A DNA stretch of 20,000 bases, from the IMG/VR virus record IMGVR_UViG_2713897279_000003; one strand, written 5' to 3'. Shown here piece by piece: positions 1-18,282 of the stretch (within the stretch, counting starts at the first letter, position 1; every line of letters begins with the position of its first letter). The notes beneath the pieces were generated by a model. That model was not told the DNA's origin. It made no database searches and saw only the letters and a list, made by a program, of their open reading frames with translations. This DNA comes from an uncultured virus (IMG/VR IMGVR_UViG_2713897279_000003). Lineage: Duplodnaviria; Heunggongvirae; Uroviricota; Caudoviricetes. The position numbers were made by a program, and so were the translations under genes.

Positions 1-2016
1 AATAGCACCAATTGTAGTGTTAGCAAATGCATCACATAGCCAAATAAGATCAACCGAATAGTTTTCTAATTTACTATATATTCCTTGTTCTACTAGATCA
101 TATTCATCTAAAGTAGCTGGAACCAACTCATATTTTCCGCCTAGAGAATCATATAATTCTTTCATAGCCATTAAATTAGTAGTATCATAAAAACCATCTC
201 CACCTAACCACTGGAAACGTCCTGCATCATTTTCGGCTTTATTATCATCTACATATAACGAATATTTCCCTTCATCTTCGTTATATTTTTCACCTAAGTT
301 AATTGGACGATAATCATAACGTCCATCAATTGGACTTACATTGTAATCCGTAACCATTAAACCCGTTATCGCTACATCACCAGTGTTCACAGGAACTTCC
401 AATCGAACAATGTTATTTTGTGGCAAGCTATTAATATAATTCGCAAACTCACGAATTGTGCGAATACCACGCATTTCTTTTGTTCTAAAGCGGATTTCAG
501 TATCATTTGATGTTAATTTTTTATCTGAAGGTTTGATAAAGCGCACTACACGATTGTCCATATCAAGTGTACCATTTTCATTTACTTCATATTCAACAGT
601 GTATTTAACACCATAAAGGCTTTCAAAATCACGAATATCCTGAATACCACCGTACACTTTACCACCGTGTTTACCTAAAATACTAATTTTTGCACCTTGG
701 GTAGCACCTTCACCTGTTTTATAATGTGCAAACAATTTAGCACCCACAGGAGCAACACCAGCTTTAATCATTACTTTTATTCTTTCTTTTCCATCTGGAT
801 AAATAACAGTAAAATGATCATTTGGCTTTAATGTGATACGTTTTCCGTTTAACTCGTAATATACTTCAAGAGAATCACTTACTGGTGTATGTTTTAATAC
901 TGACTCTTTTTCAGCGCCTGGTACTACATACTCATCAGATTTTTGTATCTCTAAGTCGTTGTAATAGAAGTAATCTGCCACTACTAATAAAGCCGCTGTT
1001 AGTGCTGGGTATATACCCTTAGCTACTTCTTGTTGATATGCTTCAGTAAAACGAATACCGCCTTGTTTATATTCTTCTGCTGTAATGATATCAGTAAGAT
1101 CGTTTTTCACCGCTGAATCGCCTTTACCAATACGCCATAAGCGTTCTCCAGATGTATTAACCATTGGAATAGCATTGACTCTACCTTCAGCATCTTTTGT
1201 ATAAACATTTACTTGATGAATAGGCTCATCTGACCAATTTCCTACTTCTGAAGAAAAGTAATTTGTCATTGTAGGATTTTGAGTTAATAATCCTAAAGTT
1301 GATGAATTAGTTTTACCATCCATGTTTCGTGTTACTTCTGAATAATTGCGTTTTTTAGCTTTGTAAATAACCTTAATAGTATTTTTAGGGCGAAACTTAT
1401 CTTTTGTAAAATAAATTGTTTCGGATCCAGGTGTAATATCTACATTTTGATAGCCAGTGGAGTCTGGAAATGTTTTAACTGGATCCACTGCTGTATCAGT
1501 TCCTTCAAACTCTTCAATTTTTTCAATTTTTACTAATCGTTGATCTTTTTCAATGTTTAATCGTTTCGTAAAAGCAATATTACCTGGAATTAAATTATTA
1601 CCCAACATATCAGCTAACGGCTCTGTAACTTCACTATTTTCATCCTTAGCAAGGATCTCTGACATTGCTGTTTTACCAGAGATACGAAGTAAACGGATAT
1701 CTTCGTTACCAGCACGTATTGCTTCCCACATTGCACGTATTAGTGTGCCCTGATGAGGAACACGAACTGTTTTTTCTACACCATTTTCAACTATAGTCTT
1801 TTTCTCTAGTAAACCACCAAACATTTTTTCAGCAGCTTTAGGGCCACCAATTTGATTAACTGATACTGGCTCTCCAACCGGACCGTCAATGGCAGTACCC
1901 ATAATTAAAATAGCCTGTGTTCTTGAGTCTTCTACCTGTTTACCAGTATAAAGATTGCCATCTTCATAGGATACTTTTACACCCGGTAAGTTTTCATACT
2001 GTTCAAAGTTTGACAT
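1..2016 (-). CDS. Large contractile tail sheath protein (3' end beyond the window, at least 672 aa)
   Basis: Not in the ORF track because it has no stop in the window. ATG at 2016 with RBS AAGGAGGAA at 2022-2030; hand translation is open to base 1. N-terminus MSNFEQYENLPGVKVSYEDG...AILIMGTAIDGPVGEPVSV...AEKMFG...LIRAMWEAIRAGNEDIRLLRISG matches the sheath N-terminal pattern (LPGV; G-x-A-x-x-GP-x-x-x-P). Near the edge, YSKLENYSVDLIWL resembles the start of the sheath core. It lies downstream of neck and terminator-like genes. Confidence 0.85.
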   Translation of the reverse strand, partial: MSNFEQYENLPGVKVSYEDGNLYTGKQVEDSRTQAILIMGTAIDGPVGEPVSVNQIGGPKAAEKMFGGLLEKKTIVENGVEKTVRVPHQGTLIRAMWEAIRAGNEDIRLLRISGKTAMSEILAKDENSEVTEPLADMLGNNLIPGNIAFTKRLNIEKDQRLVKIEKIEEFEGTDTAVDPVKTFPDSTGYQNVDITPGSETIYFTKDKFRPKNTIKVIYKAKKRNYSEVTRNMDGKTNSSTLGLLTQNPTMTNYFSSEVGNWSDEPIHQVNVYTKDAEGRVNAIPMVNTSGERLWRIGKGDSAVKNDLTDIITAEEYKQGGIRFTEAYQQEVAKGIYPALTAALLVVADYFYYNDLEIQKSDEYVVPGAEKESVLKHTPVSDSLEVYYELNGKRITLKPNDHFTVIYPDGKERIKVMIKAGVAPVGAKLFAHYKTGEGATQGAKISILGKHGGKVYGGIQDIRDFESLYGVKYTVEYEVNENGTLDMDNRVVRFIKPSDKKLTSNDTEIRFRTKEMRGIRTIREFANYINSLPQNNIVRLEVPVNTGDVAITGLMVTDYNVSPIDGRYDYRPINLGEKYNEDEGKYSLYVDDNKAENDAGRFQWLGGDGFYDTTNLMAMKELYDSLGGKYELVPATLDEYDLVEQGIYSKLENYSVDLIWLCDAFANTTIGAI

Positions 2017-2047
2017 TAGGGTTCCTCCTTTTAAATTAACCTCTTAA

Positions 2048-2734
2048 CTAAAGAGAATTATTAATCTTTGAAACAACTTGAACTTTTTGAATTTCATTAA
2101 GAAATTTAACTGTAATTTTTTCAAATCGCATTTTGTAATACATAGGTCTTTTAGCCAAGTTAATACCTTGATTTTGAATCACTTCATCAGTTCCTTGTGA
2201 ATCAAATAGAATTTCTTGAACTCCATTCCTTTTAAAGAAACCAGTATAAGTTTGAATAAATTCCTCTAGGTCCAAAACTATTTCGTCTGCTTCTTCTGCA
2301 CTTTTAGAAAAGATTACAAATTCAACTATTAAATCAAAAATCTGACCATAGAGTTCTACATATTCACCATCTCTATAAGGATGCCTAATTGTACCCCTAT
2401 GTCTTGGTTTGATATCCTTAAAATCTTTACTAACTTCCCTTTTCATGACTCGATAAGTTATACGAGGAAAATCAGCTTCCTCTTTCAGTGGAGAGTGACG
2501 TATAAACTCACCAGGTTGACCAGCATTGCTCCAAAGCTGCTGTAATTCATCCACAAAACTTAGAAAAGTAATAGGCTTATTTGAACGTAATCGATTATCA
2601 ATATATGGATCTTCTTCTGGAAGAATTTCATTATTTTTTCGAAGGCTACTCTCGTAACTTTCTAATTCCTCCTTTATGTAAGAAGGCATACTTTGTGCCT
2701 GTTGTATAGCTAAATATGGATCTATATTACTCAA
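2048..2734 (-). CDS. Putative tail terminator / tail completion protein (228 aa)
   Basis: TTG start with RBS AAGGAG. Contains FPRITYRV and FDLIVEFVIFSKSAEEADEIVLDLEEFI, a strand-strand-helix pattern typical of tail completion proteins. Sits immediately upstream of the sheath. Confidence 0.55.
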   Translation of the reverse strand: MSNIDPYLAIQQAQSMPSYIKEELESYESSLRKNNEILPEEDPYIDNRLRSNKPITFLSFVDELQQLWSNAGQPGEFIRHSPLKEEADFPRITYRVMKREVSKDFKDIKPRHRGTIRHPYRDGEYVELYGQIFDLIVEFVIFSKSAEEADEIVLDLEEFIQTYTGFFKRNGVQEILFDSQGTDEVIQNQGINLAKRPMYYKMRFEKITVKFLNEIQKVQVVSKINNSL

Positions 2735-2749
2735 GACACATTTCTCCTT

Positions 2750-3802
2750 TTATTTATAAATACGAACAATTGAATGACCTGTTATCTTATGAACAGAAAA
2801 TATCGGAACTACTTCAATATTTACTTCAATAATTCCATATAGTTCGCTTATTTTTATAGAATAATCATAATCTCTAATCTTCCTATCTAATATTCGCCTT
2901 AAACATAACGCCTCAATTATTTCTTCAATGTTAGAAGCTTGATATGTAATATTAGGTTTTCCAATAAATACTTCTAAACTTCTAGCTATTTCATTTATAA
3001 TTTCTTGTGCTATTCTAAAATTAGAGATATGTTTGTGGACACTGTCAGAAGTACTTACCGCACAACTAGAAGAAGAACACACAATACCCTTTTTAAAAGT
3101 ATTTTTAAAACAGACTATCCCTACTTCTCTTAATTTAAGAATTTGTTCTTTTGTAAATTCAGCCTCTAATTTCACGTTAGGTATAGTTTTATTTATTGGA
3201 CTTATTTCTGGATTGATTGCTGCTAATACTCCAGCATACACAGCGCTTGCTTTATTAAACTCCATTTGATTGATAACTAACGATAAGTATTTCCCATTTT
3301 CTTCCAAATCATCACCAGAAAGCTCTTTTGTTAGATTATTAATTTTATTGAAATGCTTTTCAATATCAGAAAATTTATTTTGAAGAGATAAAGACATAAT
3401 ACAATGAACCAAGTTTCCTTTATCTTCTTTTATTTTTGCAAATCTAATATAATTATCAATTAACTCGGAATGCTTATCAAACTGTACTTCATCAAGGTAA
3501 AGCAGGTCAAAATCGAAAGTCTCTAACACTGTAAATACTATATCAAACCTATTAGGCTCCATTCTCATAAGAAATACATTCAAATTCTCATCTATTGAAG
3601 TGGCATCTTCATAACATTGGACAATTGGACCAGAGTCAAATATATCTATAACCATTTCTTTCCCATAAACAAGTGTTGGTTCGTAATATTGACCTTTATT
3701 TGATTCGGCGACAATAATTAATCTTTTGCCTATCTCAACTTGTCTTTCTACGTATATTAATGGATGCTGTATAAAATCAACGCTTGGTGAGGGCCCATTC
3801 AT
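2750..3802 (-). CDS. Short tail-sheath paralog (core domains only, ~350 aa)
   Basis: Start moved from 3823 to ATG 3802 (RBS AAGGGGGA at 3808-3815). N-terminal IIVAESNKGQYYEPTLV...IFDSGPIV parallels the large sheath. C-terminus has sheath hallmarks: EQILKLREVGIVCF, HISNFRIAQEIINEI, FIGKPN, IEVNIEVVPIFSVHKI. Confidence 0.7.
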   Translation of the reverse strand: MNGPSPSVDFIQHPLIYVERQVEIGKRLIIVAESNKGQYYEPTLVYGKEMVIDIFDSGPIVQCYEDATSIDENLNVFLMRMEPNRFDIVFTVLETFDFDLLYLDEVQFDKHSELIDNYIRFAKIKEDKGNLVHCIMSLSLQNKFSDIEKHFNKINNLTKELSGDDLEENGKYLSLVINQMEFNKASAVYAGVLAAINPEISPINKTIPNVKLEAEFTKEQILKLREVGIVCFKNTFKKGIVCSSSSCAVSTSDSVHKHISNFRIAQEIINEIARSLEVFIGKPNITYQASNIEEIIEALCLRRILDRKIRDYDYSIKISELYGIIEVNIEVVPIFSVHKITGHSIVRIYK

Positions 3803-4265
3803 CACAATCCCCCTTAAAGTCATATCGACTATATACTTGATAAAATTCTGTTCTTCCTTTTACTCCAAATTTAGGTTCAACAGCACTAATTAATAACTTC
3901 TCTTTTATCTTGATTGGCATTTCTTTTTCATCCCAAACAACTTCTAATATTAGATCATTCTTTTCTGGTTTAGATCCATAGTCTAAATAATACGTATAAG
4001 CCTTAGGTGCATATGTACCATATGGTTGTAATTGATTTACTTCAACTAATGTTTCAGAATCATAAGCTTCTTTTCTTCTTGCTAACTTCTTTTCAATCAC
4101 CACTTCATATCCTGTTCCAAAACATCTAGAGCAATTTAATTTAGCTTCACCACTTCGTTCTATATAACATTTACACCGAAAATGGAGGTTTCTTCTTACA
4201 TAGATAATTGAATGACCATATTTAGCAAGAACTTGCGCAAACTCTTTACGAATATCAATCATCAA
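3777..4265 (-). CDS. Putative neck / head-closure protein with CxC...CxxC Zn motif (162 aa)
   Basis: RCKC-x11-CSRCFGTGY near the N-terminus, then a beta-rich region with PEKNDLILEV. This arrangement is seen in neck proteins of large Firmicutes myoviruses, and the position fits. Alternative start at ATG 4262. Confidence 0.55.
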   Translation of the reverse strand: MMIDIRKEFAQVLAKYGHSIIYVRRNLHFRCKCYIERSGEAKLNCSRCFGTGYEVVIEKKLARRKEAYDSETLVEVNQLQPYGTYAPKAYTYYLDYGSKPEKNDLILEVVWDEKEMPIKIKEKLLISAVEPKFGVKGRTEFYQVYSRYDFKGDCDEWALTKR

Positions 4266-4269: not shown

Positions 4270-5349
4270 TCACCCTTCTAGTAAGCTTGTTGCTGCACCA
4301 AATGAGCCTGAAACAGATTCGTTATGATTTTGTTTATTTTGCTCCATCATTACATCTAACCAAAATTTAATTTCTTTTTGATTAGACGCAATCATAATTT
4401 GCAGCTTTTTAAAAAGAGATTCTTCTTGAATACCATTTGGACTATCACTGGATTCATTGGCAGAGTTTAAATTATCTTGAATCATAAAATCCCCCAATTG
4501 GATAGTACCACTTAATCCACCTTCATCTTCTTGCTTATATGAATTATTTAAAACTCGAAACATTAAACCTTGAAGTAAGAGCCTTACAGCCTCACGTACC
4601 ACATATTTTGTTATTGCAAAATATGTATCATCCTGCTCTGTAGGGGGGCTATAACGACTATTGTTAGCATCTGGTATTTCCCCTATGTATTGTAAAGCCT
4701 TTTGCCCAGCATCCCTTAATGCACAATATACTTCATTTAGAGAAAAATATTTAAATAAACTTCCAATTATATTTTTCACTTCTAAAGGTGTTGCAAAAAT
4801 CGGCTCATATTTAGAGGTAAAAGTTAAAGTTTTTATTCCCCCTAAAGTTAATCCAGATTTTGATTTAATTTCATCACCTAGGACCACTTGATACGTATAA
4901 TTATATTTTACTTTTTCTTCAAATAAGATTTCTACTTTTTTTCCCTCAACAGAAATGCTAGTAGGTATTTGAAATTCTGAACTGAACATATAATTATCCC
5001 CATCTAACACAACTACATCCCTATTATTTTCAAAACTAGGCGCACATTCAGATATAACAGTAAATTGTTCTTTTCTCTTATATTCTTTGCCCTTAATAGT
5101 AGCTATATAGGTTAAAACATATTCACCACTCTCCAAAATTTCAGGAATGGTATACTCACCACTATACGAGAAGTGGTTATCCAATGCTTCAAGTTTAACA
5201 CTTTCTATGGCTTCTAATCCATATTGATCAAAACGCTCAATACTCACTGTTGGTGGAAAATCAACTGCAATATGTTTACTATCCTGCCCTAAAGTTAATA
5301 ATTCTAAAAAAACCTTTGTTTTTTTAGAAAATTCCCCTATATGATCCAT
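4270..5349 (-). CDS. Putative head-tail adaptor with N-terminal Ig-like segments (359 aa)
   Basis: Beta-rich N-terminal half, then PIFATPLEVK followed by a helical bundle and TIQLGDFMI, as in head-tail connector proteins. Directly precedes the head-closure-like gene. RBS AAGGTGA. Confidence 0.45.
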   Translation of the reverse strand: MDHIGEFSKKTKVFLELLTLGQDSKHIAVDFPPTVSIERFDQYGLEAIESVKLEALDNHFSYSGEYTIPEILESGEYVLTYIATIKGKEYKRKEQFTVISECAPSFENNRDVVVLDGDNYMFSSEFQIPTSISVEGKKVEILFEEKVKYNYTYQVVLGDEIKSKSGLTLGGIKTLTFTSKYEPIFATPLEVKNIIGSLFKYFSLNEVYCALRDAGQKALQYIGEIPDANNSRYSPPTEQDDTYFAITKYVVREAVRLLLQGLMFRVLNNSYKQEDEGGLSGTIQLGDFMIQDNLNSANESSDSPNGIQEESLFKKLQIMIASNQKEIKFWLDVMMEQNKQNHNESVSGSFGAATSLLEG

Positions 5350-5408: not shown

Positions 5409-6347
5409 CTAAGTTCTTTCCACCAAAATGTAACACGAGGCAGTATTAACAGTATTAGTGTCTAATTCTTCAGAAAATTTAATTGTAACTTTCTGAAAGG
5501 AATCTAGTGGATTATTGACAGACTTATTTTTAGGAAATACTTCTGTCACACTCAGTTTAGGTGAAAATTTGTTATCTGAATCCCATAAAGCTTCTTGTAA
5601 ATTTTTTAATTGCTCCTGATTAACAGCTCTCGTAAAAGTTTGTAATATTACATCTTCTTTATCATCCATACCCCTAAATTCTTCTTTCTTTGAGGTTTGT
5701 ATATTTGAGTCTATTTCTCCATCAAAATAAAAGCTAATTGGTTTTGACCAAGAACTACATATCCCTTTACAATCTACACTTCTTGCTCTTACATAATATT
5801 GTGCCTGCTTATATGAGATATCTAATTTAACACTTGTTTCATCTTCTAATAAATAAACTTTTTCACTATTTTGCGGCCACACTAAATTATTGAATGTATT
5901 GCTCATAGAGATTTGCAATTCATAATAAAGAGCTTCTTCTATCTTTGTTAGGTGATATTCGGGTTTTTTCGTAATGATAGAAAGATCTTTGGGTTTCAGA
6001 ATAATAGGCGGTTTAACAGAAACCATGTTTTTTGTATAAAATTCTAATTCATATGTTTCAGCCATAATTCTACCAGTTATATCCTTAATTCCATTTTCTC
6101 CTCCAATGAGTTGTAGTTGATAATGACTATCAGGATTTAATATATTTAAGGATTTAACCTTTAAAACTTTGCGATTATATGTAAATGTAACTGGTTCTAC
6201 CTTGTTTTCCTTTAAATTTATCAATATAATATTTTCTTGCCGAAGGCTATTCACATTAATATCCAACATAAATATTATCTCTATTTCTTGATCTAAGTGA
6301 ACTTCATCTTGCATATGATGTGGAAGTGTTTTATAAATCATACTCAT
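5409..6347 (-). CDS. Ig-like domain protein (SbsA/Big_5-type domain, FN3-like domain and partial second Big_5; 312 aa)
   Basis: TLP...EVHLDQEIEIIF...YQLQLIGGENGIKDITG...LEFYT is a Big_5 pattern. YELQIS...YYVRARSVD...SSWS is an FN3 pattern. C-terminal VTEVFPKNKSVN...VTIKFSEELDTNTV is the first half of another Big_5. Confidence 0.7.
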   Translation of the reverse strand: MSMIYKTLPHHMQDEVHLDQEIEIIFMLDINVNSLRQENIILINLKENKVEPVTFTYNRKVLKVKSLNILNPDSHYQLQLIGGENGIKDITGRIMAETYELEFYTKNMVSVKPPIILKPKDLSIITKKPEYHLTKIEEALYYELQISMSNTFNNLVWPQNSEKVYLLEDETSVKLDISYKQAQYYVRARSVDCKGICSSWSKPISFYFDGEIDSNIQTSKKEEFRGMDDKEDVILQTFTRAVNQEQLKNLQEALWDSDNKFSPKLSVTEVFPKNKSVNNPLDSFQKVTIKFSEELDTNTVNTASCYILVERT

Positions 6348-6350: not shown

Positions 6351-6686
6351 TTATAACTCACTTGTATACTTATAATCAACAGCAATAACACATGTAGGCT
6401 GTGGCACTTGTTTAGAAGAAAATAATATTTCTCCGGTAAAATAATTAATGTAATAATCACCATCTAGAGTACCTTCGTTTGAAGCTCTTTTCATTCTCAT
6501 TCCATTTTTATATATCTTTTCACTATTTCTTAAAGGCACGTGCACAAAGCGGAAATTTCGATTCACACCATCCTGTGCTCCTATTAATTGTTCTTGATCG
6601 GCTAGTTTAGAACCAGAAAAGTCGGGCATTACTCCGACCTTTTTTCTGAACTTAGGATAATCAGGGTGTTGTCTAACAAAAGCCAT
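6351..6686 (-). CDS. Small virion structural protein, single DUF2460-like beta module (111 aa)
   Basis: GAQDGVNRNFRF...KIYKNG...DYYINYFTGEILF...VIAVDYKY; RBS AGGGGGAG. The same module recurs in the 605 and 708 aa proteins. Confidence 0.55.
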   Translation of the reverse strand: MAFVRQHPDYPKFRKKVGVMPDFSGSKLADQEQLIGAQDGVNRNFRFVHVPLRNSEKIYKNGMRMKRASNEGTLDGDYYINYFTGEILFSSKQVPQPTCVIAVDYKYTSEL

Positions 6687-6700: not shown

Positions 6701-7228
6701 TTATCTCCACATCAAAGCAAAATCATACACATTTGGGCGTACGGTACCAGTATAAGTACATTCTACTTTGACTTGAATATATTTTCTTGGTGTTTCTAAT
6801 AAAGTAGGCTGATCTACTCTTATTTCTTGCCAATCTGCTGATTTAGATGATCTAAAATAGAATTTAACGTAAGCCCCTTTATTAGGGTAATCTTCAAAAT
6901 TAGAGACAAGATTGATCTCCTCTGTTGGAAGTGGAAGCTCTAATAATGAACTTTCCCACGCTCCTGAATTGATAGAAAAACTTAATGTATTTAATGCAGC
7001 TGTACTATTTTCATCTCGATCAGTATTATTTATAAAAGGTTCACAAAAATACATGTCATAAGGAGACACGAGGAGATACATATCATATCTCTCTCGTGTT
7101 GTTTTTAACTTAATTGCTTCTGCAATATTCTTTTGCATCATATTTAAGTGAAAATCATGTAATACTTGACCATCCAAAAAGGCGATTCGCTTCATATAGT
7201 CAGTTGCATAAGAAGGTACTGTTGCCAT
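6701..7228 (-). CDS. Putative virion structural protein (175 aa)
   Basis: RBS AGGGGGA. N-terminal KRIAFLDGQVLHDFHLNMMQ resembles the R-x-x-F-x-x-G-x-x-L-x4-LN-x-x-Q anchor motif of phage fibre/baseplate proteins; the C-terminus is beta-sandwich-like. Confidence 0.5.
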   Translation of the reverse strand: MATVPSYATDYMKRIAFLDGQVLHDFHLNMMQKNIAEAIKLKTTRERYDMYLLVSPYDMYFCEPFINNTDRDENSTAALNTLSFSINSGAWESSLLELPLPTEEINLVSNFEDYPNKGAYVKFYFRSSKSADWQEIRVDQPTLLETPRKYIQVKVECTYTGTVRPNVYDFALMWR

Positions 7229-9070: not shown

Positions 9071-11197
9071 TTAGTTTTTTCCACCCATGAATGGTTTTCC
9101 GCCTTCATTAAGAAGCGTAATTGTCCATGTAATACGAATACCTGTATTTACATCTTTTCTTGTGTCACCTACACGTACAAGAGAGAATGCTTTAACTGGA
9201 TACTCACGGAATCCGGCGATTTTATCATCAACACGAGGTCCATCAAATAGTCCCATTTCACGAATTGTAATATTATGCGCTGGCTTGAATTCTGGGAACT
9301 CAGCTACGAATCTTACGGAACCTTTATCTAATTCAAACCAAGGATACTCATTCACTGTCTTTGGTTTTTCAACAATTGCACGAGTATAATTTGTTGGAAC
9401 CCCAGGTCGTTCCGCAGAGCGGTAATTGATTTCAATATAAGAAATCGCTGTACCGTTCGCACTATTTTTGGATAAATTGATGCACTTCTTATCAGCAGCA
9501 TCAAACATGTATTTTCCATCACCAAAGTCTGCAACATCTTCTACTAATTCTAATAAGTTTCCTGATTGATCAATAATACGAACTGTTTCTTTATTGAAAG
9601 CATATTCAGTTTTATATTTATTACATGGAATCTTTACTGTCATTGTCTTACTGTAAGAATAATCTACAATAATTTTTTCATTGTAAGCTGGTGCAACATT
9701 CAAGATAAATGTCCCTTTAGTTAGATCGATACTTTCAAAATCACCTTGAGATAGTGTAGTTCCACCTTTTTTTACAAGCAATGTTCCATCTTGTATTTGC
9801 GTTTGAGATAACTTAAAGTTACGGTTTGAAGAATTAAGAGCACCAGTAGGAACTTCATTTGTAACAGGAAGGATCTTTGTCTCTTCTCTAGATACGTTAT
9901 CATCAATCATAGTAGAAACCATTTCACTATCATAAATTTCACCAGTGATAGAATACGTAACCATTACGCCTGTTAAGGCACGATTAAATTCAACAATACC
10001 TCGCATATGGTCAACTACATATGTTAAATCATTTAATTGATTACGATCTTTTACTTCTGTGAAATCTGTACCTTCATAAGATACCTTAACCGTTCCTTCT
10101 TTTATTGGATGGTTCGGAATTTGTATAGTAAAAGGCCCCATTGGTGTTGTATTATAAGCAGCTGGTGTTACAAACTCAGTTTCAAAGTTAGTAATCTCTT
10201 TAAGTAATCCGTTCATATTTTTTGATAATGCATCAAATCGAACAGCAGCAATGCTCATCTCTGGGTTACTTACACCTGAATCAGCACCAGAATGAACGAT
10301 TTTAATTTCCGTTTCTGATGTATTATCAAATCCATCATATTTAAACTCATGAACAACAGGTTCAGAGAGCTCACTATTTAACGTCTCAATTGTTTCTTTT
10401 AAAACATCATTTACAAAAATGTCGATTTGAGCACCTTTACTAGACTTTTCTACCTCTAAGACAAAGTTACTAATCTTTTGCTTAAATTTAATAGATTCGC
10501 CTTCAAGCGTTGCTTTTGCCTTTTCATTAGAAACTGTAATGCCCTTCGATAAAGTTAATCGATTATCAGTAAATGGAACTTTGTAGTTCTCTCCCTCACC
10601 GATACCAATGAACATATTTGTATATCCTGAATAGATTTCTGCTGATAGTGCAACACGATCTGCAGTTGGCGTTTTTGAAAGAGTAAATGCCTTTTTACCT
10701 AATTCACCAGACACCTCTTCTTTTATATAAAGAGTTACAGGATAGTAACCATATGATATTTCGAAATCTTCATCGTTTACTTCTGCCCATAATAAGTTAG
10801 GCGCATGAAGAAGCTGATTACCATCAAATAAAGGAGCTTTTTTTAATTTTGACTCAGTAATATAAATCTTATTAGTCGTTCCTGTAGATGCCTTAGGAAT
10901 ACGATTTTTATATAATACACGGGTAGGATCCCCTGAAAATGCACGTAACAAAATTTCCTCTGCACCATTTAAAACTAAGTTCTTTTGATCCGCTAACACT
11001 CCAACTACCTTACCAGCTGAATTGATTTCTTCAATTTTTATATGACCTCTTGGTGTTAATTCGAATGAATCACGCAAGCCATCTCCCCCTCGTTGTCTCT
11101 TTTTTGATAAATTACTTTCCAGTTTTCTCTTTAGAGCTTCTTTTTTAGGACCATCTGGAAGTAACCCTAATAACTTCTGAATATTTTTCATACTCAT
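9071..11197 (-). CDS. Fibre/baseplate-like structural protein, paralog A (708 aa)
   Basis: GHIKIE...KNLVLNGAEEIL, FIGIGEG, VRFVAEFP, IREMGLFD and KDVNTGIRITWTITL resemble the tail-fibre anchor/baseplate fold, interrupted by beta modules. ATGA overlap with the upstream gene. Confidence 0.6.
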   Translation of the reverse strand: MSMKNIQKLLGLLPDGPKKEALKRKLESNLSKKRQRGGDGLRDSFELTPRGHIKIEEINSAGKVVGVLADQKNLVLNGAEEILLRAFSGDPTRVLYKNRIPKASTGTTNKIYITESKLKKAPLFDGNQLLHAPNLLWAEVNDEDFEISYGYYPVTLYIKEEVSGELGKKAFTLSKTPTADRVALSAEIYSGYTNMFIGIGEGENYKVPFTDNRLTLSKGITVSNEKAKATLEGESIKFKQKISNFVLEVEKSSKGAQIDIFVNDVLKETIETLNSELSEPVVHEFKYDGFDNTSETEIKIVHSGADSGVSNPEMSIAAVRFDALSKNMNGLLKEITNFETEFVTPAAYNTTPMGPFTIQIPNHPIKEGTVKVSYEGTDFTEVKDRNQLNDLTYVVDHMRGIVEFNRALTGVMVTYSITGEIYDSEMVSTMIDDNVSREETKILPVTNEVPTGALNSSNRNFKLSQTQIQDGTLLVKKGGTTLSQGDFESIDLTKGTFILNVAPAYNEKIIVDYSYSKTMTVKIPCNKYKTEYAFNKETVRIIDQSGNLLELVEDVADFGDGKYMFDAADKKCINLSKNSANGTAISYIEINYRSAERPGVPTNYTRAIVEKPKTVNEYPWFELDKGSVRFVAEFPEFKPAHNITIREMGLFDGPRVDDKIAGFREYPVKAFSLVRVGDTRKDVNTGIRITWTITLLNEGGKPFMGGKN

Positions 11198-13290
11198 GAT
11201 TCGCTCACTTCTCCTTTTAAGGTATTTACGCCCAGTTTAAATACCCCTAAACTCCAGCCATTTTCCATTTCACCTAAAGCATATTGAACAACGTCTGAAC
11301 CATCTATGATAAACACATCTCTTGGATTATGCTGAACTTCAGCATCAAACTTCTCTAAGTACCTATATCTATTAGGATTCCTCAAGTAATGCTTAAATAA
11401 ATTGTAATAAGTATCTTCTTCTGAAAACTGCTTTGCTTCCCTGTAATCAGAATACTTATTGATATCTAAAGCATTTGCAGTATCTTCTAATAACAGTAGA
11501 ACTGGCTCATTGGGATATAAGTCTTGCACTTCATGATTAATAATAGCCATATCTTTAAGAATAATTGGCCATAATTCTATAAGCCTTTTAAAGTAATCTG
11601 ATTGATGTGTAATTTTTTCATTTATGTTTGTTTGGATATGTTGTTTAATTTCGCTTTTAAAAGTTTCGTAGTGTGTCCGAATACTTTCTACTAAGCTTAC
11701 TTTCTGAGATTCTTTTTGAATAAATGGATGACTCGTTGGTTGTATATGTAGCATTTCTTTATAGGCTGATGAAAATGCCTCTTTTAATGAACTAGCAAGT
11801 GTAGATTCAATTTTATAGGAATCAATAGAATGAACAGTTTTACGCTCTTGAACAGTTTTAATATACTTGTTATACTCATGCTCAAAAGATTCACCTACAC
11901 CTAACAGTACAGTTACAATCTCTTCAAAACTATAGTCTACCCACATATTTAATCTATGATCTACACATAACTTAATGATTCTTTCTAAGATTTCCACTTC
12001 GCATAAGTTTTGCAAATCTGTATCATTTCTAATTAGAGATGATACAATGTCATATACGAGTAAGTTGCGAACTTCATAGTCTTTATCATCAATTGTCGTA
12101 AACTCAAGTAGACTACTATGAGAGCTTGATTTATGCAGGTCATCTAGTTCATGATCTAACTCCATTAGTCGAACGTCCATTGCAGTTAACGGAGCGTATA
12201 CTGTACGCAGCGCCATCCTTAAATACCTTGCAACATTTTCATCTTTTTTAGCCACAATATTTTCAAATATAATTGGCTCTGATATTAATTGTACTGCATC
12301 CTGCACTTTAGAGACAAAATGGTCATCCAGCGATAAAGAGCTTACTGCTTTTATTAACTCGCCTTTGATATCCAATTTATACTCACCATTCAGATAAATG
12401 CCCGTTTCTTCCTCGTTCTTCAATATTACTTCAATATCAGTCTTTTCAAATAAATTTTCCATAGAATCTATTAAGAAATACTGAAGAACCATTTCCACAA
12501 AGTCCTTATTTGTATTTTGGTACTGATCAAAAATCTTATAGATTTTCAATAGTTGGGCAAACTCTTCCGGAGAAGACATCAATTCTTCATTAAACTTAGT
12601 TGTTAGGAAATTCGATATCACTGTAAATGATTCGCCTAATTGAGAAACAAATTGCTCCTGAATATGATGCCCTGATTTGCTCCCGATAACGTGAAGGATT
12701 TCTTTCATTGATACTTTCTTTAATTCCCTTGCATCAAGTGTTTTAAATAAGTTAGGATGCATTTCTTTTATGATATTTATAAAGGCGTCATTTGTAATGT
12801 ATTCCATGTATGTTTCAATCTGATTATCATTAGCGGTTAACAATAAATCTATAACATCATGGATCATATTATAAATAATTTCTTTCCCATCTTCGTCTTT
12901 AATATCTGAATAAACCCAATCACTTTTTAGTCCTTTATCCGAAACCCCATGTGCCCTATATTGGTTAAATGAAATGGCATTATCATACTCTGATTGCTTG
13001 TGACTAACCCAATATGACTCATTAACTCCGTTTTTCTCTTTAGATAGCACTGATTTAATTCTATATACATCTTCATTGCTAGATTCTAGTGACATTTGCT
13101 TCTGCACTAATGTATTTACTTTTAATTGACCAATGTGAATCGGTGTTAGACGAAGTGTAATATCAGATTCATCTTCTAAAAAGGTAATATTTTTAAATAA
13201 TCTATCATTTATAGGTTTATGAGCAACAACAGGAAATGGCTTTGCTAAACATGTAATCTCAACGTATTCAGAAAAAAGTGATTCTAACAT
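11194..13290 (-). CDS. Hypothetical protein, probably virion-associated (698 aa)
   Basis: Strong RBS (AGGGGGTGA) and translationally coupled to the 708 aa gene. Acidic. C-terminal WSLGVFKLGVNTL resembles the F-x-LG-x-x-x-L motif seen in some phage tail proteins. Confidence 0.6.
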   Translation of the reverse strand: MLESLFSEYVEITCLAKPFPVVAHKPINDRLFKNITFLEDESDITLRLTPIHIGQLKVNTLVQKQMSLESSNEDVYRIKSVLSKEKNGVNESYWVSHKQSEYDNAISFNQYRAHGVSDKGLKSDWVYSDIKDEDGKEIIYNMIHDVIDLLLTANDNQIETYMEYITNDAFINIIKEMHPNLFKTLDARELKKVSMKEILHVIGSKSGHHIQEQFVSQLGESFTVISNFLTTKFNEELMSSPEEFAQLLKIYKIFDQYQNTNKDFVEMVLQYFLIDSMENLFEKTDIEVILKNEEETGIYLNGEYKLDIKGELIKAVSSLSLDDHFVSKVQDAVQLISEPIIFENIVAKKDENVARYLRMALRTVYAPLTAMDVRLMELDHELDDLHKSSSHSSLLEFTTIDDKDYEVRNLLVYDIVSSLIRNDTDLQNLCEVEILERIIKLCVDHRLNMWVDYSFEEIVTVLLGVGESFEHEYNKYIKTVQERKTVHSIDSYKIESTLASSLKEAFSSAYKEMLHIQPTSHPFIQKESQKVSLVESIRTHYETFKSEIKQHIQTNINEKITHQSDYFKRLIELWPIILKDMAIINHEVQDLYPNEPVLLLLEDTANALDINKYSDYREAKQFSEEDTYYNLFKHYLRNPNRYRYLEKFDAEVQHNPRDVFIIDGSDVVQYALGEMENGWSLGVFKLGVNTLKGEVSES

Positions 13291-13889: not shown

Positions 13890-15164
13890 TTAAATGCTGT
13901 ATCCTTCCGCCCTTAAATACTCTTCAATCCAAGGTCCTTGAATTTCTTGCACACCTTCTAAATCCTCTAAAATCCTGTAGAACCTCCTGATTTCCTCCTT
14001 GTTTCTTAAAAGGTTTGTTTGTTTCTCATAGAAGTCTGATTCTGATTTATAGAAATTTAGTATATCTGCTATATTTGATTCATAAGTTTTTTTTACATTA
14101 TCAATCGAATTAATCATATAAGTAGCAAATAAATCCATAGATCCACTCATCTGCTCTTCTTGATTGAACAACCAATTTTTTAATGGCTCAGTAGTCTTTA
14201 CTTCTAACTGTTGATGCAAATAATGTTTCTCTGATGCAAATATTTCTTTTTCAACATCTAAAGAAATCATTCTTCCCTTTATACTTAAATGCTGATCTTG
14301 TATATCATTGAAGTTAAGAACTAAATGTGATTTAACTATACTTAAATCACCGAACTCTTTTATACTTAAAATAAAAGCCTTTAAGTTTTTATCAATTAAT
14401 GATTTGGAATCATATACAAGTATCTTTGCCTTTTCTATTACATTGAGAATCATAAAATATCTATTCTTATGAATATAAGATGTATCTGCTAATGTAATAT
14501 GGAACATCTCCTGTTTCCTTTTAATTTGTTCCATTTTAGTTAGAACTTCATAATTTAACTCTCTTATATTAGGAAACAAGTTTTCATCCATTATGGGTTC
14601 TTCATCATCTTCATGGGCTTCTGCTAAAATACTATATCCTTCTAATACTTGTGCTTCTAAAAACTCCCATTCCTCTATTGATTTTAATTCTGCCTTCTCA
14701 ATTTTTTCTAAATCGCTTTCATTGGTAAATTGGACCCTAAATCTACTATCAATAAATTCCCTTTGGGAAGTTATTGATTCTTTTATATTAAATAAGAGGC
14801 TGTATAATTCTAAGTCACCCTTTTGTTTGTAACCACAATATTCTTTTTCTAATAAAGCTGCTTCTTTAACTCGTCTTTGCTTCAAATTCTCTGTTAATTT
14901 ATCAATTAATTGATTATCATTTCTTTCTTTAATATCTTTAAGAATCACATTTACTTCATTAATCAATTCATCATAGTCTAACAAACTCTGAGAAACTGTA
15001 AATTTACGGGATCGTTCTATAATTCCCTTCACTTGGGGCTGTAAGTTTTGTATCGCCATTTCCTTGGTATATCCTATACTAGGTCTATACTCTATTTTCT
15101 CTCTCTCGTAATTTGTATCAATACCTTTGGAACCATATAACTCTTCATAAGCATTTTTCATCAT
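13890..15164 (-). CDS. Hypothetical alpha-helical / coiled-coil protein (424-434 aa)
   Basis: Long E/K/L/I-rich ORF with no catalytic motif recognised. AAGGAG precedes ATG 15164; the ORF track start is 15194. Confidence 0.7.
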   Translation of the reverse strand: MMKNAYEELYGSKGIDTNYEREKIEYRPSIGYTKEMAIQNLQPQVKGIIERSRKFTVSQSLLDYDELINEVNVILKDIKERNDNQLIDKLTENLKQRRVKEAALLEKEYCGYKQKGDLELYSLLFNIKESITSQREFIDSRFRVQFTNESDLEKIEKAELKSIEEWEFLEAQVLEGYSILAEAHEDDEEPIMDENLFPNIRELNYEVLTKMEQIKRKQEMFHITLADTSYIHKNRYFMILNVIEKAKILVYDSKSLIDKNLKAFILSIKEFGDLSIVKSHLVLNFNDIQDQHLSIKGRMISLDVEKEIFASEKHYLHQQLEVKTTEPLKNWLFNQEEQMSGSMDLFATYMINSIDNVKKTYESNIADILNFYKSESDFYEKQTNLLRNKEEIRRFYRILEDLEGVQEIQGPWIEEYLRAEGYSI

Positions 15165-15197
15165 AAATAGATTACAACTCCTTGTTACATACATATA

Positions 15198-15250
15198 GTC
15201 CCTGTAATCATACAGGGACCATTATAAAAAAGCATTGAAAGCTTAGCCAA
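15198..15250 (-). promoter_or_regulatory. Sigma-A-like promoter with a perfect inverted repeat over the predicted start site
   Basis: Minus strand TTGGCT (15250-15245), 18 nt spacer, TATAAT (15226-15221), followed 1 nt later by GTCCCTGTA-TGAT-TACAGGGAC (15219-15198). Confidence 0.55.
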
Positions 15251-15329
15251 ATAAAACAGGATACTGGGTTATTTTATCTTCCACCCAAAAGGGGGCCAAC
15301 GCATTATATCAGGCATTTCAAAATATTTT

Positions 15330-15650
15330 TTACTTAGGTATTTTTACAACCTTCCAATCTTTTGCCAATAATTCTTCTGTCGTTAAAGTGCGATAGGATA
15401 TAACTTTGTTCTCTTGCACTGTAGCAAGATACTTTTCTGGCTTATTTTTTACTAACCGAATTGCGGAACCTAATATTTTCTCTTTTGATTGACGCTGAAT
15501 ATCGCATCCTTCTTCTAACAAACGTAATCCAACACCCATTCCAAATTCGACTTTTTTCTCAAATATTTCTTTAACTGCTAATTCAATAGCACCGGCCTGT
15601 TCAATACTCTTCTGACATTGTTCAAATACATTATTCTTTACTTCGTTCAT
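15330..15650 (-). CDS. Divergent DUF2829 / Tad2-like protein (putative nucleotide-signal sponge, 106 aa)
   Basis: RBS AGGAGGTG. FGMGVGLRLLEEGCDIQR ... AIRLV ... KYLAT ... TTEELLAKDWKVV follows the family pattern as I recall it (F-x-x-AL-x-x-LK-x-G-x-x-V-x-R ... S-x-x-D-x-LA-x-DW-x-x-V). Confidence 0.55.
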   Translation of the reverse strand: MNEVKNNVFEQCQKSIEQAGAIELAVKEIFEKKVEFGMGVGLRLLEEGCDIQRQSKEKILGSAIRLVKNKPEKYLATVQENKVISYRTLTTEELLAKDWKVVKIPK

Positions 15651-15756
15651 AGGTTACACCTCCTAAATTTTTTTCATAAATCCCCTTCACTTTGCAGAAT
15701 TTTTACCTTTAAAATAGATGAACCAACATTTATTCCGCCTTTAATCATATTACTTT

Positions 15757-15790
15757 TATATGTTTTAATTCTTATATACGTCTTAATTCT
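15757..15790. repeat. Imperfect tandem repeat, two copies, 18 bp period
   Basis: TATATGTTTTAATTCT (15757-15772) and TATACGTCTTAATTCT (15775-15790), 14/16 identical. Confidence 0.5.
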
Positions 15791-16328
15791 CACCAAATGC
15801 TTTTTCTCGTATTAATTGATAATTATTATTCTTATTAAGTAATGCCTTTCTTCTGATTGAAACTCATCCAAAATGCAAGTAATATTTAAAATTTCACTAA
15901 AACTGCTACTACAATAAACATAAACTATATTTAGAGTACATATATTCTTATGTATATAGAATTAGCTAAGTGTGAATTTAGCAACTGAGCAATCTATTAA
16001 TTAATTCTATACCATATTAAATTCTATTCATAAATATAATTGTAAAGCATTTCAATCTTATGCCTCATGGTTATATAGCAATAATCCTTACTACATTAGC
16101 GAATATATCCCCAATAAAATCAACGATACAATGAGCTGTAGAAGTGATTTAAATATACTCACACTATTTCACTCTTCTATATCATCCCATTTTCCCATTA
16201 ATACATTTACAATTCCTTTTTTAGTAATGCATTAATTCCTATGTTGACTAATTTATTATTATCTAATCATTGATATGAAAAATCCCTTACTAATCTAATA
16301 TGCATTTTATCCCTTTACTCATATAATT

Positions 16329-16484
16329 TTATTTGAGATTTTTTTCTTTTAGTACTTGATTAATTCTCTCGTTAACTATTGCTGCAGCAACATATCCTAA
16401 TCCTCTTGCATAAGCTAATTCTGCTTGTCTAACAACGTGTTTCCCAATTTTTGTGTCCTTCAGGCTTTTTTTATCTTTATTCAT
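16329..16484 (-). CDS. Small basic hypothetical protein (51 aa), below the ORF-track cutoff
   Basis: RBS AGGAGG overlapping the stop of the upstream gene, ATG 16484, TAA 16329-16331. Sequence MNKDKKSLKDTKIGKHVVRQAELAYARGLGYVAAAIVNERINQVLKEKNLK. Confidence 0.7.
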   Translation of the reverse strand: MNKDKKSLKDTKIGKHVVRQAELAYARGLGYVAAAIVNERINQVLKEKNLK

Positions 16485-16496
16485 CTATGAATCCTC

Positions 16497-17288
16497 CTAT
16501 AGACCGCTTATTTCATTACATACCTTATCTATTAATTGATATGGTACACTACTTTTTAGCTGAGGGGAAGCATTTAATCTTGCCTTAGACAAGGTACTTC
16601 CTACTCTCATTGCATCTAATGCAGCAGGAGATATTAGCATATCAGTCGCAACTTGACCCAACTTAGGTGTCATTTTTCCTTGTAGGCCCTTTTTAAAGCT
16701 ATTTTTCATAAATTTTTTCCCATATGCACTTTGGGCTGTATATTTACGTGCAGCACTAATAGCTGGCTGCATTAAAGCATGTGGTTCTACCATCCCAACC
16801 CCCCCTAATATACCCATGTTTGTGACATGATGTCGAAGCTTTTTCTCTTCTGATTCTGGTATAGATAATTTCATTAAAGCATCCTTTAATTTCCCATCAT
16901 CTTTTCCCTCCGCATAATGTATTAAGGTATTAATATATGGAGTTTTGTCTAATTCTTGCTTCTGAATATCTGTTAAACTTGAAAATTGTTCTTTAACTTG
17001 CTCCCTAAATATCTTTAAAGCTTCTGTCTGTACATGCTCAGGCAGACCTTGTAGTCTATGGCCAACACTCTGTCCCATTTCATACTCAACAAGGCTTTCT
17101 GGACCTATACCATACTCCATAAAATCTTTTACGGTGTGTTGTAACTTCTGGCCTTTACGCCCCATATCAACACCCGCTCCAAACGTTGCTGCTAAAGCCT
17201 TCTGACCAGTTTTTGTACTTTTAACTGCCTTCATCGCTAAATTAGGTGCTATATGAATGGCTGCTGCTGTCCCTAGTAAACTCAACAT
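16497..17288 (-). CDS. Hypothetical Ala/Gly/Lys/Met-rich protein (263 aa)
   Basis: Intact ORF starting 2 nt after the upstream stop. Amphipathic and mildly hydrophobic segments (MLSLLGTAAAIHIAP, MGILGGVGMV). No family recognised. Confidence 0.7.
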   Translation of the reverse strand: MLSLLGTAAAIHIAPNLAMKAVKSTKTGQKALAATFGAGVDMGRKGQKLQHTVKDFMEYGIGPESLVEYEMGQSVGHRLQGLPEHVQTEALKIFREQVKEQFSSLTDIQKQELDKTPYINTLIHYAEGKDDGKLKDALMKLSIPESEEKKLRHHVTNMGILGGVGMVEPHALMQPAISAARKYTAQSAYGKKFMKNSFKKGLQGKMTPKLGQVATDMLISPAALDAMRVGSTLSKARLNASPQLKSSVPYQLIDKVCNEISGL

Positions 17289-17290
17289 AA

Positions 17291-17787
17291 TTATTCACAC
17301 AAAACAGCCGTACTAACACCAAATTTTCCATCCGCTAATACTGATCTTGCTTTTCCTTTCCATCCTCCACCAAAAATTTTTTTATAAATTTTTTCGATAT
17401 AGAACATTATGTCTATAGAATGTACATGTATAGGAATTTGAACATCATGATCTTCTTCTAATAACATGTCTACTTTAGGATTATTAATACTTGTACTATT
17501 CATCATACTAATATAACTACTCTCTAATTTAATAGGACTCTTTCTATGAATCGTATCAATTCTTTTAATTCTATTTTGTCTCCACTTATCGGCAGCACCT
17601 ACGACCATTGATTCGATTATATTTTCATAGACTGTTTCTTTATAAGACTGATTACTCGCTAAATATAGATTTGACAGCTTAGATCTTCCTTTCCATAAAT
17701 TAATCTAGTAAAACAATACCTCTACAACCAATGAAAACTTTTAAAACTATGTATAACATTTTTATTTTTTATCCACTCTTTTTTCAA
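17291..17787 (-). pseudogene. Probably disrupted gene; the 105 aa ORF 17291..17608 is its 3' part
   Basis: ATG 17608 has no RBS. The frame stays open upstream (INLWKGRSKLSNLYLASNQSYKETVYENIIES) until a TAG near 17706. A purine-rich RBS and TTG at 17787 open a different frame (MKKEWIKNKNVIHSFKSFHWL-stop). Confidence 0.4.
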
Positions 17788-17850
17788 AGCCTCCTACCCT
17801 ATTTTTCTACATAATTAATTATTATCTTGGCACAATTCTTTACTAATTTT

Positions 17851-18282
17851 TCAATATACTTTTTGAGCTCCAGCTGCATGGTTTGCCATACTTTTAACCA
17901 AATGATTTCTTGCATTTTGCATGTTTGATAGGTCTACTTGCATCATAGCCACTTGTGATTCAGATTGTTTGAATCCCCCCCCAAATTGACTTTTTTTACT
18001 ATCTATTGCTCCTATCGTTGCATCTAGTTTATTAAATATCTTTGGTACAGTCCTGATAGCCTTGACAGTATTAACTGTTATAGCAGCACCTGGAATAAGA
18101 GATAAAGCCGCTTTCGATAAGATAGTTTTGCCTAAAGCTACAGAGGCAGAGTCCCCAGCTTTCATACGAGAATATGTACCATAAGCAATACCACCTATTC
18201 TTCCTGCCTTTTTAAACTTTCTTACCACCACGTTATTTCGAAGTCCATGATTTGTATCAGAACCTCCTTGAACACTAGACAT
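17851..18282 (-). CDS. Basic Gly/Ala-rich hypothetical protein, possibly virion-internal (143 aa)
   Basis: Start moved to ATG 18282 (RBS GGAGGT). MSSVQGGSD...GRIGGIAYG...QFGGGFKQSESQVAMMQ...NHAAGAQKVY. Confidence 0.7.
   Translation of the reverse strand: MSSVQGGSDTNHGLRNNVVVRKFKKAGRIGGIAYGTYSRMKAGDSASVALGKTILSKAALSLIPGAAITVNTVKAIRTVPKIFNKLDATIGAIDSKKSQFGGGFKQSESQVAMMQVDLSNMQNARNHLVKSMANHAAGAQKVY

Follow-up and report, generated by a model that had tools for sequence, protein, structure and literature searches.

How a plasmid comes to carry the contractile tail genes of a very large bacteriophage beside a partition gene, with no recognizable gene for a head, is the question raised by a 20,000-nucleotide stretch of the uncultured virus record IMGVR_UViG_2713897279_000003 in IMG/VR (the whole of this stretch is referred to as the window). 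The original prediction, made from the sequence alone, left two options open: a large plasmid-prophage with a relocated head module, or a headless contractile particle derived from a large Bacillus myovirus. On the best reading of the comparisons described here, the window covers the head-proximal end of the virion genes of a ParM-partitioned plasmid-prophage of ~140-145 kb that has been decapitated. The deletion of its head and packaging genes in place is, by alignment with head-bearing sisters, as good as shown, and purifying selection on its tail genes since these deletions is well supported. The balance tips slightly towards the retained tail being used as a giant tailocin-like machine.

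Identity and Layout of the Window

Over its full length, the window is 99.5% identical to plasmid pG9842_140 of Bacillus cereus G9842 (NC_011774.1, 140,001 bp), and it is 98.8% identical to a 141.8-kb plasmid of B. thuringiensis L1. The nearest genome compared is the complete genome G001 (two contigs, 100% complete), which bears a 145,187-bp version of the plasmid, and contig C2 of genome G067 is identical to pG9842_140 across the 4.3 kb compared. A more distant relative is the 259.7-kb plasmid pd of B. thuringiensis Gxmzu777-1 (NZ_CP097261.1), with 86% nucleotide identity over 82% of the window. Megablast of the window against phages gave no match. Virion-gene homology and synteny place the plasmid in the BtI1/0305phi8-36 lineage of very large Bacillus myoviruses.

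Every open reading frame (ORF) of at least 100 aa in the window lies on the minus strand. In the direction of transcription, from position 20000 to 1, the order is ParM, a 63-aa ORF, small ORFs, a 263-aa gene, ORFs of 106 and 434 aa, and the tail run. The latter comprises 11 genes from 13290 to 1, with spacings of -47 to +59 nt, the last three being a sheath paralog, a 228-aa gene, and the sheath. The ~13 kb of tightly coupled structural genes predicted originally are thus found, and the two sheath genes said to end them turn out to be one sheath and a shorter paralog, as in ORF137/139 of 0305phi8-36. The PHROGs labels in the window are sheath, sheath paralog, and two "virion structural proteins", to which Pfam adds immunoglobulin (Ig)-like Big_5 domains. 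None of the 18 window ORFs has a PHROGs or Pfam match to a family of terminases, portals, proteases, or capsids, in agreement with the earlier claim that such genes are missing between parM and the sheath. The window also holds no tRNA, Rfam family, or notable repeats.

Deletion of the Head and Packaging Genes in Place

The head-bearing sisters used for comparison were pd and the IMG/VR proviruses L016, L017 (the same as G002), and L018. All four carry an intact series of large terminase (TerL), p106, p424, portal, p456, p407, major capsid protein (MCP), and p166, with the head and packaging genes at the positions of the two gaps of the window. The region matching the window takes up 28 kb in pd, versus 20 kb, and the extra DNA consists of TerL and p136a at one site, and of portal, p456, p407, MCP, and p166 at the other. 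Here, p456 is a 456-aa protease/scaffold candidate and p407 a 407-aa protein that aligns to the head decoration protein of 0305phi8-36. The pd TerL matches phrog_2 (1e-30) and three Pfam terminase families, the portal phrog_9232 (9e-58), and the MCP phrog_3922 (2e-32) and PF25209. TerL, portal, protease/scaffold, decoration, and MCP of pd align to ORF117, 122, 123, 124, and 125 of 0305phi8-36, respectively, with E values of 1e-34 to 1e-126. In L016, L017, and L018, every gene of the head module from TerL to p166 is 88-100% identical to pd at the amino acid level.

What remains of these genes in the window are two non-coding scars. Broken ORF fragments had been predicted in both gaps; they are there, recognizable only by comparison with the sisters, and the second gap runs from 15651 to 16496 instead of ending at 16328. 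Scar 1 (13291-13889), the portal-to-MCP deletion junction, aligns to pd by blastn with 69.5% identity (E 1e-24), and contains the last ~130 nt of MCP, the MCP-p166 spacer, and the start of p166. The blastn alignment places the junction itself at ~13825-13845, with a TTTGA microhomology. A terminator-like hairpin with a 13-bp stem at 13699-13666 lies where the relatives have the MCP-p166 spacer. Scar 2 (15651-16496), the remnant of the terminase deletion or replacement, preserves a scrap of the TerL C terminus at 15758-15863, detected by tblastn as residues ~507-538 at 15768-15863 (E 0.007) and by blastn at 15758-15852 (E 9e-7). Among the small genes upstream of TerL in pd, p250, p147, p183, and p136a have no counterpart in the window, and counterparts of p150 and p136b survive at 56% and 36% identity.

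Both scars are common to all four sequenced headless copies, the window among them, free of gaps, which indicates that each deletion occurred once, before the copies diverged. As aligned to the sisters, the scars show portal, protease/scaffold, decoration, and MCP to have been removed by one ancestral deletion; the adjoining p166 is also lost. They likewise show a second event to have taken out the large terminase and p136a, with the 263-aa gene now in their place. Derivation from a large Bacillus myovirus by loss of the head, one of the two options of the original prediction, is thereby supported. An attempt to date the deletions from scar divergence (Jukes-Cantor distances of 0.36-0.40) was dropped, as the dS of the flanking genes relative to pd ranges from 0.26 to 1.05, a sign of mosaicism.

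Search for Head Genes Elsewhere

The other option, a complete plasmid-prophage whose head module lies elsewhere in the genome of the window itself, draws on the retention of neck-position genes and on the fact that the absence of head genes is a result for the closest, near-identical relatives of the window rather than for its own assembly. It runs against the scars, which show deletion of the head genes in place, and against searches of those relatives. On pG9842_140, all ORFs of at least 70 aa (102 outside the window and 18 inside) were compared with PHROGs and Pfam, the whole-replicon profile search that had been proposed, and 0 of the 120 matches a terminase, portal, or capsid family. Similarly, tblastn of the pd head proteins against the whole plasmid returned the TerL scrap only. 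Three genes past the sheath that match phrog_9206, labeled "major head protein", were considered and rejected, being tail tube paralogs and not head proteins. The label is erroneous, given that the 0305phi8-36 members ORF140 and ORF141 carry the notes "tail tube" and "tail tube paralog", and it could mislead automated screens for head genes.

The search was extended to two host genomes. G001 gave no match for the pd portal, MCP, and TerL proteins, nor for phrog_9232, phrog_3922, and phrog_2, and G067 (100% complete) gave none for phrog_9232 and phrog_3922 (portal and MCP), TerL having been searched in G001 only. In the provirus G002, used as positive control, phrog_9232, phrog_3922, and phrog_2 all match. 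The nearest complete replicons thus contain no substitute head or packaging genes, and the two host genomes, as searched, none of the type of this lineage, which leads to rejection of the relocated-module option for the nearest complete genomes. For the window's own genome, this option is very improbable.

Plasmids from PLSDB agree with this picture. Twenty-four of them encode a relative of the sheath (E<=1e-20), and 19 of these also encode relatives of the pd MCP, portal, and TerL. When the sheath is required to align over at least 80%, 10 plasmids remain, of which eight have all three head genes and two, pG9842_140 and the L1 plasmid, have none. The close head-bearing relatives (8/8) therefore keep TerL, portal, and MCP, which in pd occupy their canonical place. 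Two plasmids with distant sheath relatives (31-34% identity), NC_020292.1 from Clostridium saccharoperbutylacetonicum N1-4 (136 kb) and CP052064.1 from B. thuringiensis (552 kb), give no match to the pd MCP, portal, or TerL at E<=1e-20, and are either headless or simply too distant.

A Second Decapitation in the Lineage

The BtI1/BwK1/0305phi8-36 lineage was defined by Hardies et al. 2007 (PMC2147016), who describe BwK1 as "a smaller version of BtI1", with nothing said about its head genes in the text available. BwK1 is located on plasmid pBWB401 of B. mycoides KBAB4 (L036, NC_010180.1 368652-409392, especially 12395-22100), and was compared with its head-bearing sister BtI1, taken from 235-kb B. 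thuringiensis israelensis plasmids. BtI1 differs from the window in having a full head module. Relative to it, BwK1 has an 8.5-kb deletion that starts just past the gene at the ORF118 position and takes in portal, protease/scaffold, decoration, MCP, and an Ig-like gene. TerL can be recognized to residue 456 only, with fragments beyond, and the tail genes are still long ORFs. The tube gene is interrupted by a 626-bp insert with a match to the group I intron model (RF00028; E 4.5e-9 and 42 bits, below the gathering score of 50) and, given this match, is probably not broken. Both BwK1 and the pG9842_140 type retain the gene between TerL and portal. Judged from these alignments, BwK1 is a second, independent decapitation within the lineage, of nearly the same outline as that of the pG9842_140 type.

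Selection on the Retained Tail Genes

If the headless plasmid were an inert remnant, that is, a defective plasmid-prophage kept by ParM, a HEPN/nucleotidyltransferase gene pair, and its replication genes, and too young to have decayed, its tail genes should be drifting. This is the published reading of the plasmid. Piligrimova et al. 2021 (PMC8026635) note that CP001188.1 lacks the small and large terminase and several capsid components and has myovirus tail genes, and devote a single sentence to classifying it as a "degenerated prophage remnant" of the Myoviridae; CP001188.1 is pG9842_140 (PMC13199646, Table 3). In contrast to the present analysis, that account of CP001188.1 contains, in the text available, neither a comparison with sisters nor a description of the scars or a test of selection.

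Outside the fibre region, the three complete headless plasmids are colinear and 97-99.7% identical. The whole window is covered in a single contig by each of the isolate sequencing runs X8, X13, and X18 (94, 184, and 186 substitutions, respectively, and no gaps) and in three contigs by run X9 (90 substitutions and a single 1-nt gap, at the non-coding position 18612); the four runs may in part represent the same strains as the plasmid records. In all, 18 runs from 12 studies contain at least half of the words sampled from a stretch spanning both scars. No RNA data set is among the 24 runs listed, which carries no weight as to expression. Polymorphism was assessed with a custom script using Nei-Gojobori-style site counts, each variable site being counted once across copies, on an input of three to four related, non-independent sequences. 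The 29 structural genes of the backbone with at least 99% identity (11,925 codons) have 133 synonymous and 89 non-synonymous changes, corresponding to a ratio of non-synonymous to synonymous diversity (piN/piS) of 0.17 (binomial p 2.8e-37). For all 41 gap-free structural genes, these values are 923, 510, and 0.14 (p 9.7e-283). The 434-aa gene together with the 106-aa ORF has a piN/piS of 0.18 (p 5e-4). Strong constraint also acts on the 263-aa gene, with eight synonymous and no non-synonymous changes (piN/piS 0, p 4.2e-6). The 161-aa and 105-aa leftovers of the pre-terminase block look relaxed, with five synonymous and 12 non-synonymous changes and a piN/piS of 0.65 that is not significantly below 1 (p 0.29).

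The scars provide an internal standard for these values. Scar 1 varies at 10/599 sites (0.017) and scar 2 at 18/846 (0.021), which matches the density of synonymous changes (0.018) and exceeds that of non-synonymous changes (0.003) about sixfold. When dN/dS is computed pairwise for each block, the backbone gives 0.14-0.32 and the divergent segments 0.07-0.14. There are no gaps in ~17 kb of coding sequence in the three plasmids and the four isolate runs, and the structural ORFs, ~90 kb in all and with genes of 1669-2435 aa among them, are open in all three complete plasmids.

Neutral decay predicts a piN/piS of about 1 and coding indels; the backbone does not show the former, nor these ~17 kb the latter. 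The original prediction had named such decay as the outcome contrary to its own; retention of the tail genes under selection is what the data support, and this argues against the reading of the plasmid as a degenerated remnant. The arrival of the same design twice, in the pG9842_140 type and in BwK1, speaks in the same direction. For an inert remnant speak the presence of ParM and of the HEPN/NTP_transf_2 pair, the small divergence among headless copies (backbone synonymous density about 0.018), and the decay of accessory genes detailed below. Taken together, this explanation is unlikely, albeit the most serious competitor.

A Predicted Contractile Tail with Its Own Lysis Genes

The remainder of the plasmid shows which functions have been kept. 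On the 3' side of the sheath are found the three tube paralogs (phrog_9206), genes at chaperone positions, and a 1780-aa protein, followed by a 2141-aa hub-like protein bearing a lysozyme domain (phrog_20474, PF13702) and gp25-like and J/gp47-like baseplate proteins (phrog_975, phrog_6, PF04865). There are also many fibre ORFs and very large proteins with PA14, vWA, and discoidin domains. The fibre region of pG9842_140 (~49.8-73.8 kb) consists of two partly duplicated cassettes (phrog_38581-34867-22575...), and is rearranged and only 75-92% identical among the three complete headless plasmids (~50-72 kb). Lysis genes are represented in pG9842_140 by a holin (PF04531, phrog_962) and an amidase endolysin (PF01510+PF01471, phrog_1493), the latter with seven synonymous and two non-synonymous changes relative to G001C2. 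The replication genes are of phage type and include a primase, a DnaB-like helicase, DnaE, SSB, and initiator candidates; Zheng et al. 2013 (PMC4219350) detected none of the known minireplicons on pG9842_140. A sigma-like regulator and helix-turn-helix regulators are also encoded, as well as an overlapping HEPN and nucleotidyltransferase gene pair (NTP_transf_2, MNT-like; L001 5797-6565) that is likely a toxin-antitoxin or addiction module. By its predicted genes, the plasmid encodes everything to build and release a contractile tail and nothing to build or fill a head.

The favored reading, with somewhat better than an even chance, is that the plasmid encodes a giant machine resembling an R-type tailocin, producing headless contractile tails released by lysis and retargeted through fibre cassettes. 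Upon induction, the plasmid would express the tail operon, headless contractile tails would assemble, and the holin and endolysin would lyse the cell and release them. The particles would then act like R-type tailocins, binding a neighboring cell through the swappable fibre cassettes, contracting, and puncturing it. The benefit to kin cells that carry the plasmid is proposed to be what allows selection to keep the tail genes.

Several observations weigh against this reading, and part of them are those expected of an inert remnant. Particle production is, for every carrier, predicted from genes alone, and the sole published comment is the one quoted above (PMC8026635). The selection test rests on three to four non-independent sequences; the gene for the putative 1780-aa tape measure has a dN/dS of 0.63-0.70; and divergence is patchy, with some genes 93-96% identical beside 99.9% identical neighbors. 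This patchiness points to recombination, and low dN/dS in the divergent segments may be partly "pre-filtered" in head-bearing phages, an effect to which the result for the backbone of at least 99% identity is less exposed. As to decay, dnaE of the L1 plasmid (NZ_CP132202.1; L031 35723-39218) is split by expansion of a 4-bp AGAA repeat; it is intact in pG9842_140, and G001 differs solely by a 1-nt change in a T run seven codons before the end. A fibre paralog of pG9842_140 is frameshifted at a G8 tract where G001 reads GAGGGGG, the dUTPase is truncated (L004 19725-20018; covering 50-104 of the 129 profile positions), and only fragments represent an SNF2-type helicase (L001 2125-4563; positions 662-1155 of 1881 of the PHROG profile). 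In its present place, the terminator of scar 1 (13699-13666) separates the 434-aa gene from the tail genes. Finally, there is no excess of promoters, with 33 promoter-like sites versus 30.8 expected.

A Possible Helper for the Missing Head

Purifying selection on the tail genes and the swapping of fibres would also be explained if the plasmid formed virions only when a co-resident relative of the pd type supplied terminase, portal, and capsid, making it a tail-encoding parasite of its kin. Satellites that form capsids and borrow tails would be the mirror image of such an element. Head-bearing relatives circulate in the same species group, a relative of 200-260 kb has capsid room for 140 kb, and the element is present in two species-level host lineages. 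Moreover, divergence from pd is mosaic. The 698-, 708-, and 605-aa genes (7244-13290) have a dS of 0.23-0.32 and 94-98% amino acid identity, compared with a dS of about 1.0-1.1 for the sheath region (1-6347; about 1.1) and the 434-aa gene. This difference suggests that the head-proximal block was exchanged with head-bearing relatives more recently, and that head and neck may be compatible.

Such dependence on a helper is nevertheless improbable. A lineage-type portal or capsid is found in neither of the two complete carrier genomes, the small genes near TerL, the expected site of a small terminase or pac, have for the most part disappeared or look relaxed, and no packaging signal was identified on the plasmid. 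A recent horizontal transfer from one host species to another was weighed and discarded, since the rpoB regions of G001 and G067 are 98.9% identical, near the divergence of the plasmid backbone. Vertical descent is sufficient to account for this similarity between plasmid and host, and recent transfer is not needed.

Comparison with Known Systems

The closest known systems to the window are the plasmid-prophages of the pd type, which share ParM, the gene order, and tail and neck-position proteins that are 62-98% identical. They differ in having TerL, portal, protease/scaffold, decoration, MCP, p166, and four small genes, and in lacking the 263-aa gene at its site. With 0305phi8-36, the window shares the order ORF136-137-138-139 (virion protein, sheath paralog, virion protein, sheath), followed by tube paralogs, as the synteny check suggested originally has confirmed, and the ORF127-like Ig proteins. 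The identity is only 25-35% at the amino acid level, and 0305phi8-36 is a lytic myovirus of 218.9 kb with a full head module, not a plasmid. With ParM, pG9842_140 has the actin-like ATPase that characterizes ParMRC systems, while the head and packaging genes that complete the virion module of a phage-plasmid are missing from it.

As outlined in the literature on R-pyocins and the diffocins of Clostridioides difficile, R-type tailocins resemble the plasmid in their contractile tail set, absence of capsid and packaging genes, lysis cassette, and variable fibres. All of these features are present in the plasmid, which has sheath, tube, tape measure/hub, baseplate, and fibres, no capsid, portal, or terminase genes, and its own lysis cassette. 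Known tailocin loci are about 15-40 kb in length, chromosomal, and non-replicating, and tailocins are usually, though not strictly, domesticated loci that no longer replicate as phage. In contrast, the plasmid has ~90 kb of structural genes, is known from genes alone, and is an autonomous 140-kb replicon with ParM, DnaE, a DnaB-like helicase, and primase.

Tailocin loci of Gram-positive bacteria tend to retain capsid genes, according to a review (PMC10538166), whereas in the plasmid these genes are cleanly deleted. The megaplasmid of C. saccharoperbutylacetonicum N1-4 was rejected as a precedent for a plasmid-borne tailocin, as the same review (PMC10538166) assigns clostocin O to a prophage genome of ~40 kb, integrated by means of a resolvase, and not to the megaplasmid.

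A different class of contractile particle, the extracellular contractile injection systems (eCIS) of the Afp/PVC type, is characterized by an Afp15-type AAA+ ATPase and toxin cargo genes next to a short tail cluster not related to phages. This identity was rejected, as the 102 ORFs outside the window have a single AAA-type match, to AAA_25 in the DnaB-like helicase, the 18 inside it have none, and the sisters that are 86% identical are phages. That head genes are absent from the plasmid is already in print; the comparison with sisters, the scars, the evidence of selection, and the BwK1 parallel were not found in print. Nor was any publication found on tailocins or tail-only particles of this lineage, supplements aside.

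Genes of the Window

All the genes described in this section, including the 63-aa ORF, are encoded on the minus strand. The parM gene (18819..20000) encodes a 393-aa actin-like plasmid segregation ATPase that matches PF17989 ALP_N (8e-22, 78 bits against a cut-off of 26.3), PF21522 (2e-14, 55 bits), and phrog_691 (1e-60), as well as NF010498 ParM (2e-25) under the cut-off of the latter. Of the partition pair proposed originally, this member is firmly supported, and the second would be the 63-aa ORF directly 3' of parM (18628..18819), a ParR-like adaptor candidate by position only. It is 93.7% identical to its pd equivalent and has no family match in PHROGs, Pfam, or NCBIfam. No parC-type repeat array was seen in 13200-18700, the upstream side of parM falling beyond the window.

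The leftovers of the pre-terminase block are the 161-aa ORF (17851..18336), a diverged homolog of pd p150, and the 105-aa ORF (17291..17608), a diverged homolog of pd p136b (tblastn E 6e-21). Next comes the 263-aa gene (16497..17288), which matches phrog_26650 (1e-127) and stands where the relatives have p136a and TerL; the 48-kb pd locus has no match to it at the corresponding position. Its AlphaFold2 model is all-helical (pLDDT 69) and yields no Foldseek match in PDB at E<=0.001, and Pfam gives two weak single-member matches for its family. Homologs of 245-450 aa are found on other large contigs.

The 106-aa ORF (15330..15650), which adjoins TerL in the relatives, matches phrog_1048 (4e-11) and is 60% identical to pd p106. 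The 434-aa gene (13890..15194; 424 aa in RefSeq), retained between the two deletions, is 80% identical to pd p424 and occupies the position of ORF118 in 0305phi8-36, with no BLAST similarity to ORF118 or to the 451-aa gene of BtI1. A search for related loci with this protein gave 30 pattern matches in genome contigs, none confirmed, and three loci in viral contigs.

The tail run opens with three virion-module proteins. The first gene past the lost head module encodes a 698-aa protein (11194..13290) that is 93.6% identical to pd; its homologs are found on ~200-kb contigs of other Bacillus species and Priestia. It is followed by proteins of 708 aa (9071..11197; dN/dS 0.08-0.12 among headless copies) and 605 aa (7244..9061; dN/dS 0.06-0.10, 98% identical to pd). 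For the 698-, 708-, 605-, 434-, and 263-aa proteins, a sequence search of PDB gave nothing below E 0.2, the protein atlas no usable match (best score 0.76), and NCBIfam and PADLOC nothing. The ORFs of 175 aa (6701..7228; 96.6% identical to pd, no family match) and 111 aa (6351..6686) are neck/connector candidates by position only, the second with a weak distal-tail-like match to DUF2460/TIGR02217 (E 0.005, under the cut-off).

The remaining genes have counterparts in 0305phi8-36. A 312-aa Ig-like (Big_5) virion protein (5409..6347; PF13205 5e-14) is homologous to ORF127 (blastp 6e-20), of which the 359-aa Ig-like virion protein (4270..5349) may be a weak paralog (PF13205 4e-4, under the cut-off; blastp E 0.005). 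The 162-aa protein (3777..4265; phrog_38102 1e-91) is homologous to ORF136 (blastp 8e-22), a virion protein confirmed by mass spectrometry according to its record note. The 357-aa sheath paralog (2750..3823) is ORF137-like, with matches to phrog_279 (6e-14) and phrog_16991 (7e-11) and blastp matches to ORF137/139, and the 228-aa virion protein (2048..2734; phrog_20284 1e-98) corresponds to ORF138 (blastp 3e-14). The tail sheath (1..2016; phrog_16991 8e-199) runs off the window after the N-terminal 672 of its 973 aa; the full gene on the plasmid matches phrog_16991 with an E value of 0 and is 33% identical to ORF139.

Significance

In its strongest form, the proposal is of a tailocin-type locus larger by far than any other known, with ~90 kb of structural genes from a jumbo-phage lineage, kept by selection, retargeted through its fibres, and evolved at least twice, or, in a bolder variant, of a tail-encoding satellite that takes its heads from kin; this stronger claim falls a little short of an even chance. 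As a rule, tailocin loci are small and chromosomal, and the phages that they came from have long disappeared, whereas here the head-bearing sisters persist, the setting being plasmid-borne and in a Gram-positive host. With living sisters, readable scars, and several headless copies, the step from phage to tail-only element can be studied almost as it happens. Should the plasmid not produce such particles, it would still serve to test how long selection-like signals persist in a dead prophage. If it does, the contractile devices that it encodes would be of exceptional length and complexity and would have exchangeable receptor-binding cassettes, which would be relevant to competition among strains of the B. 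cereus group and could offer a scaffold for engineered tailocins.

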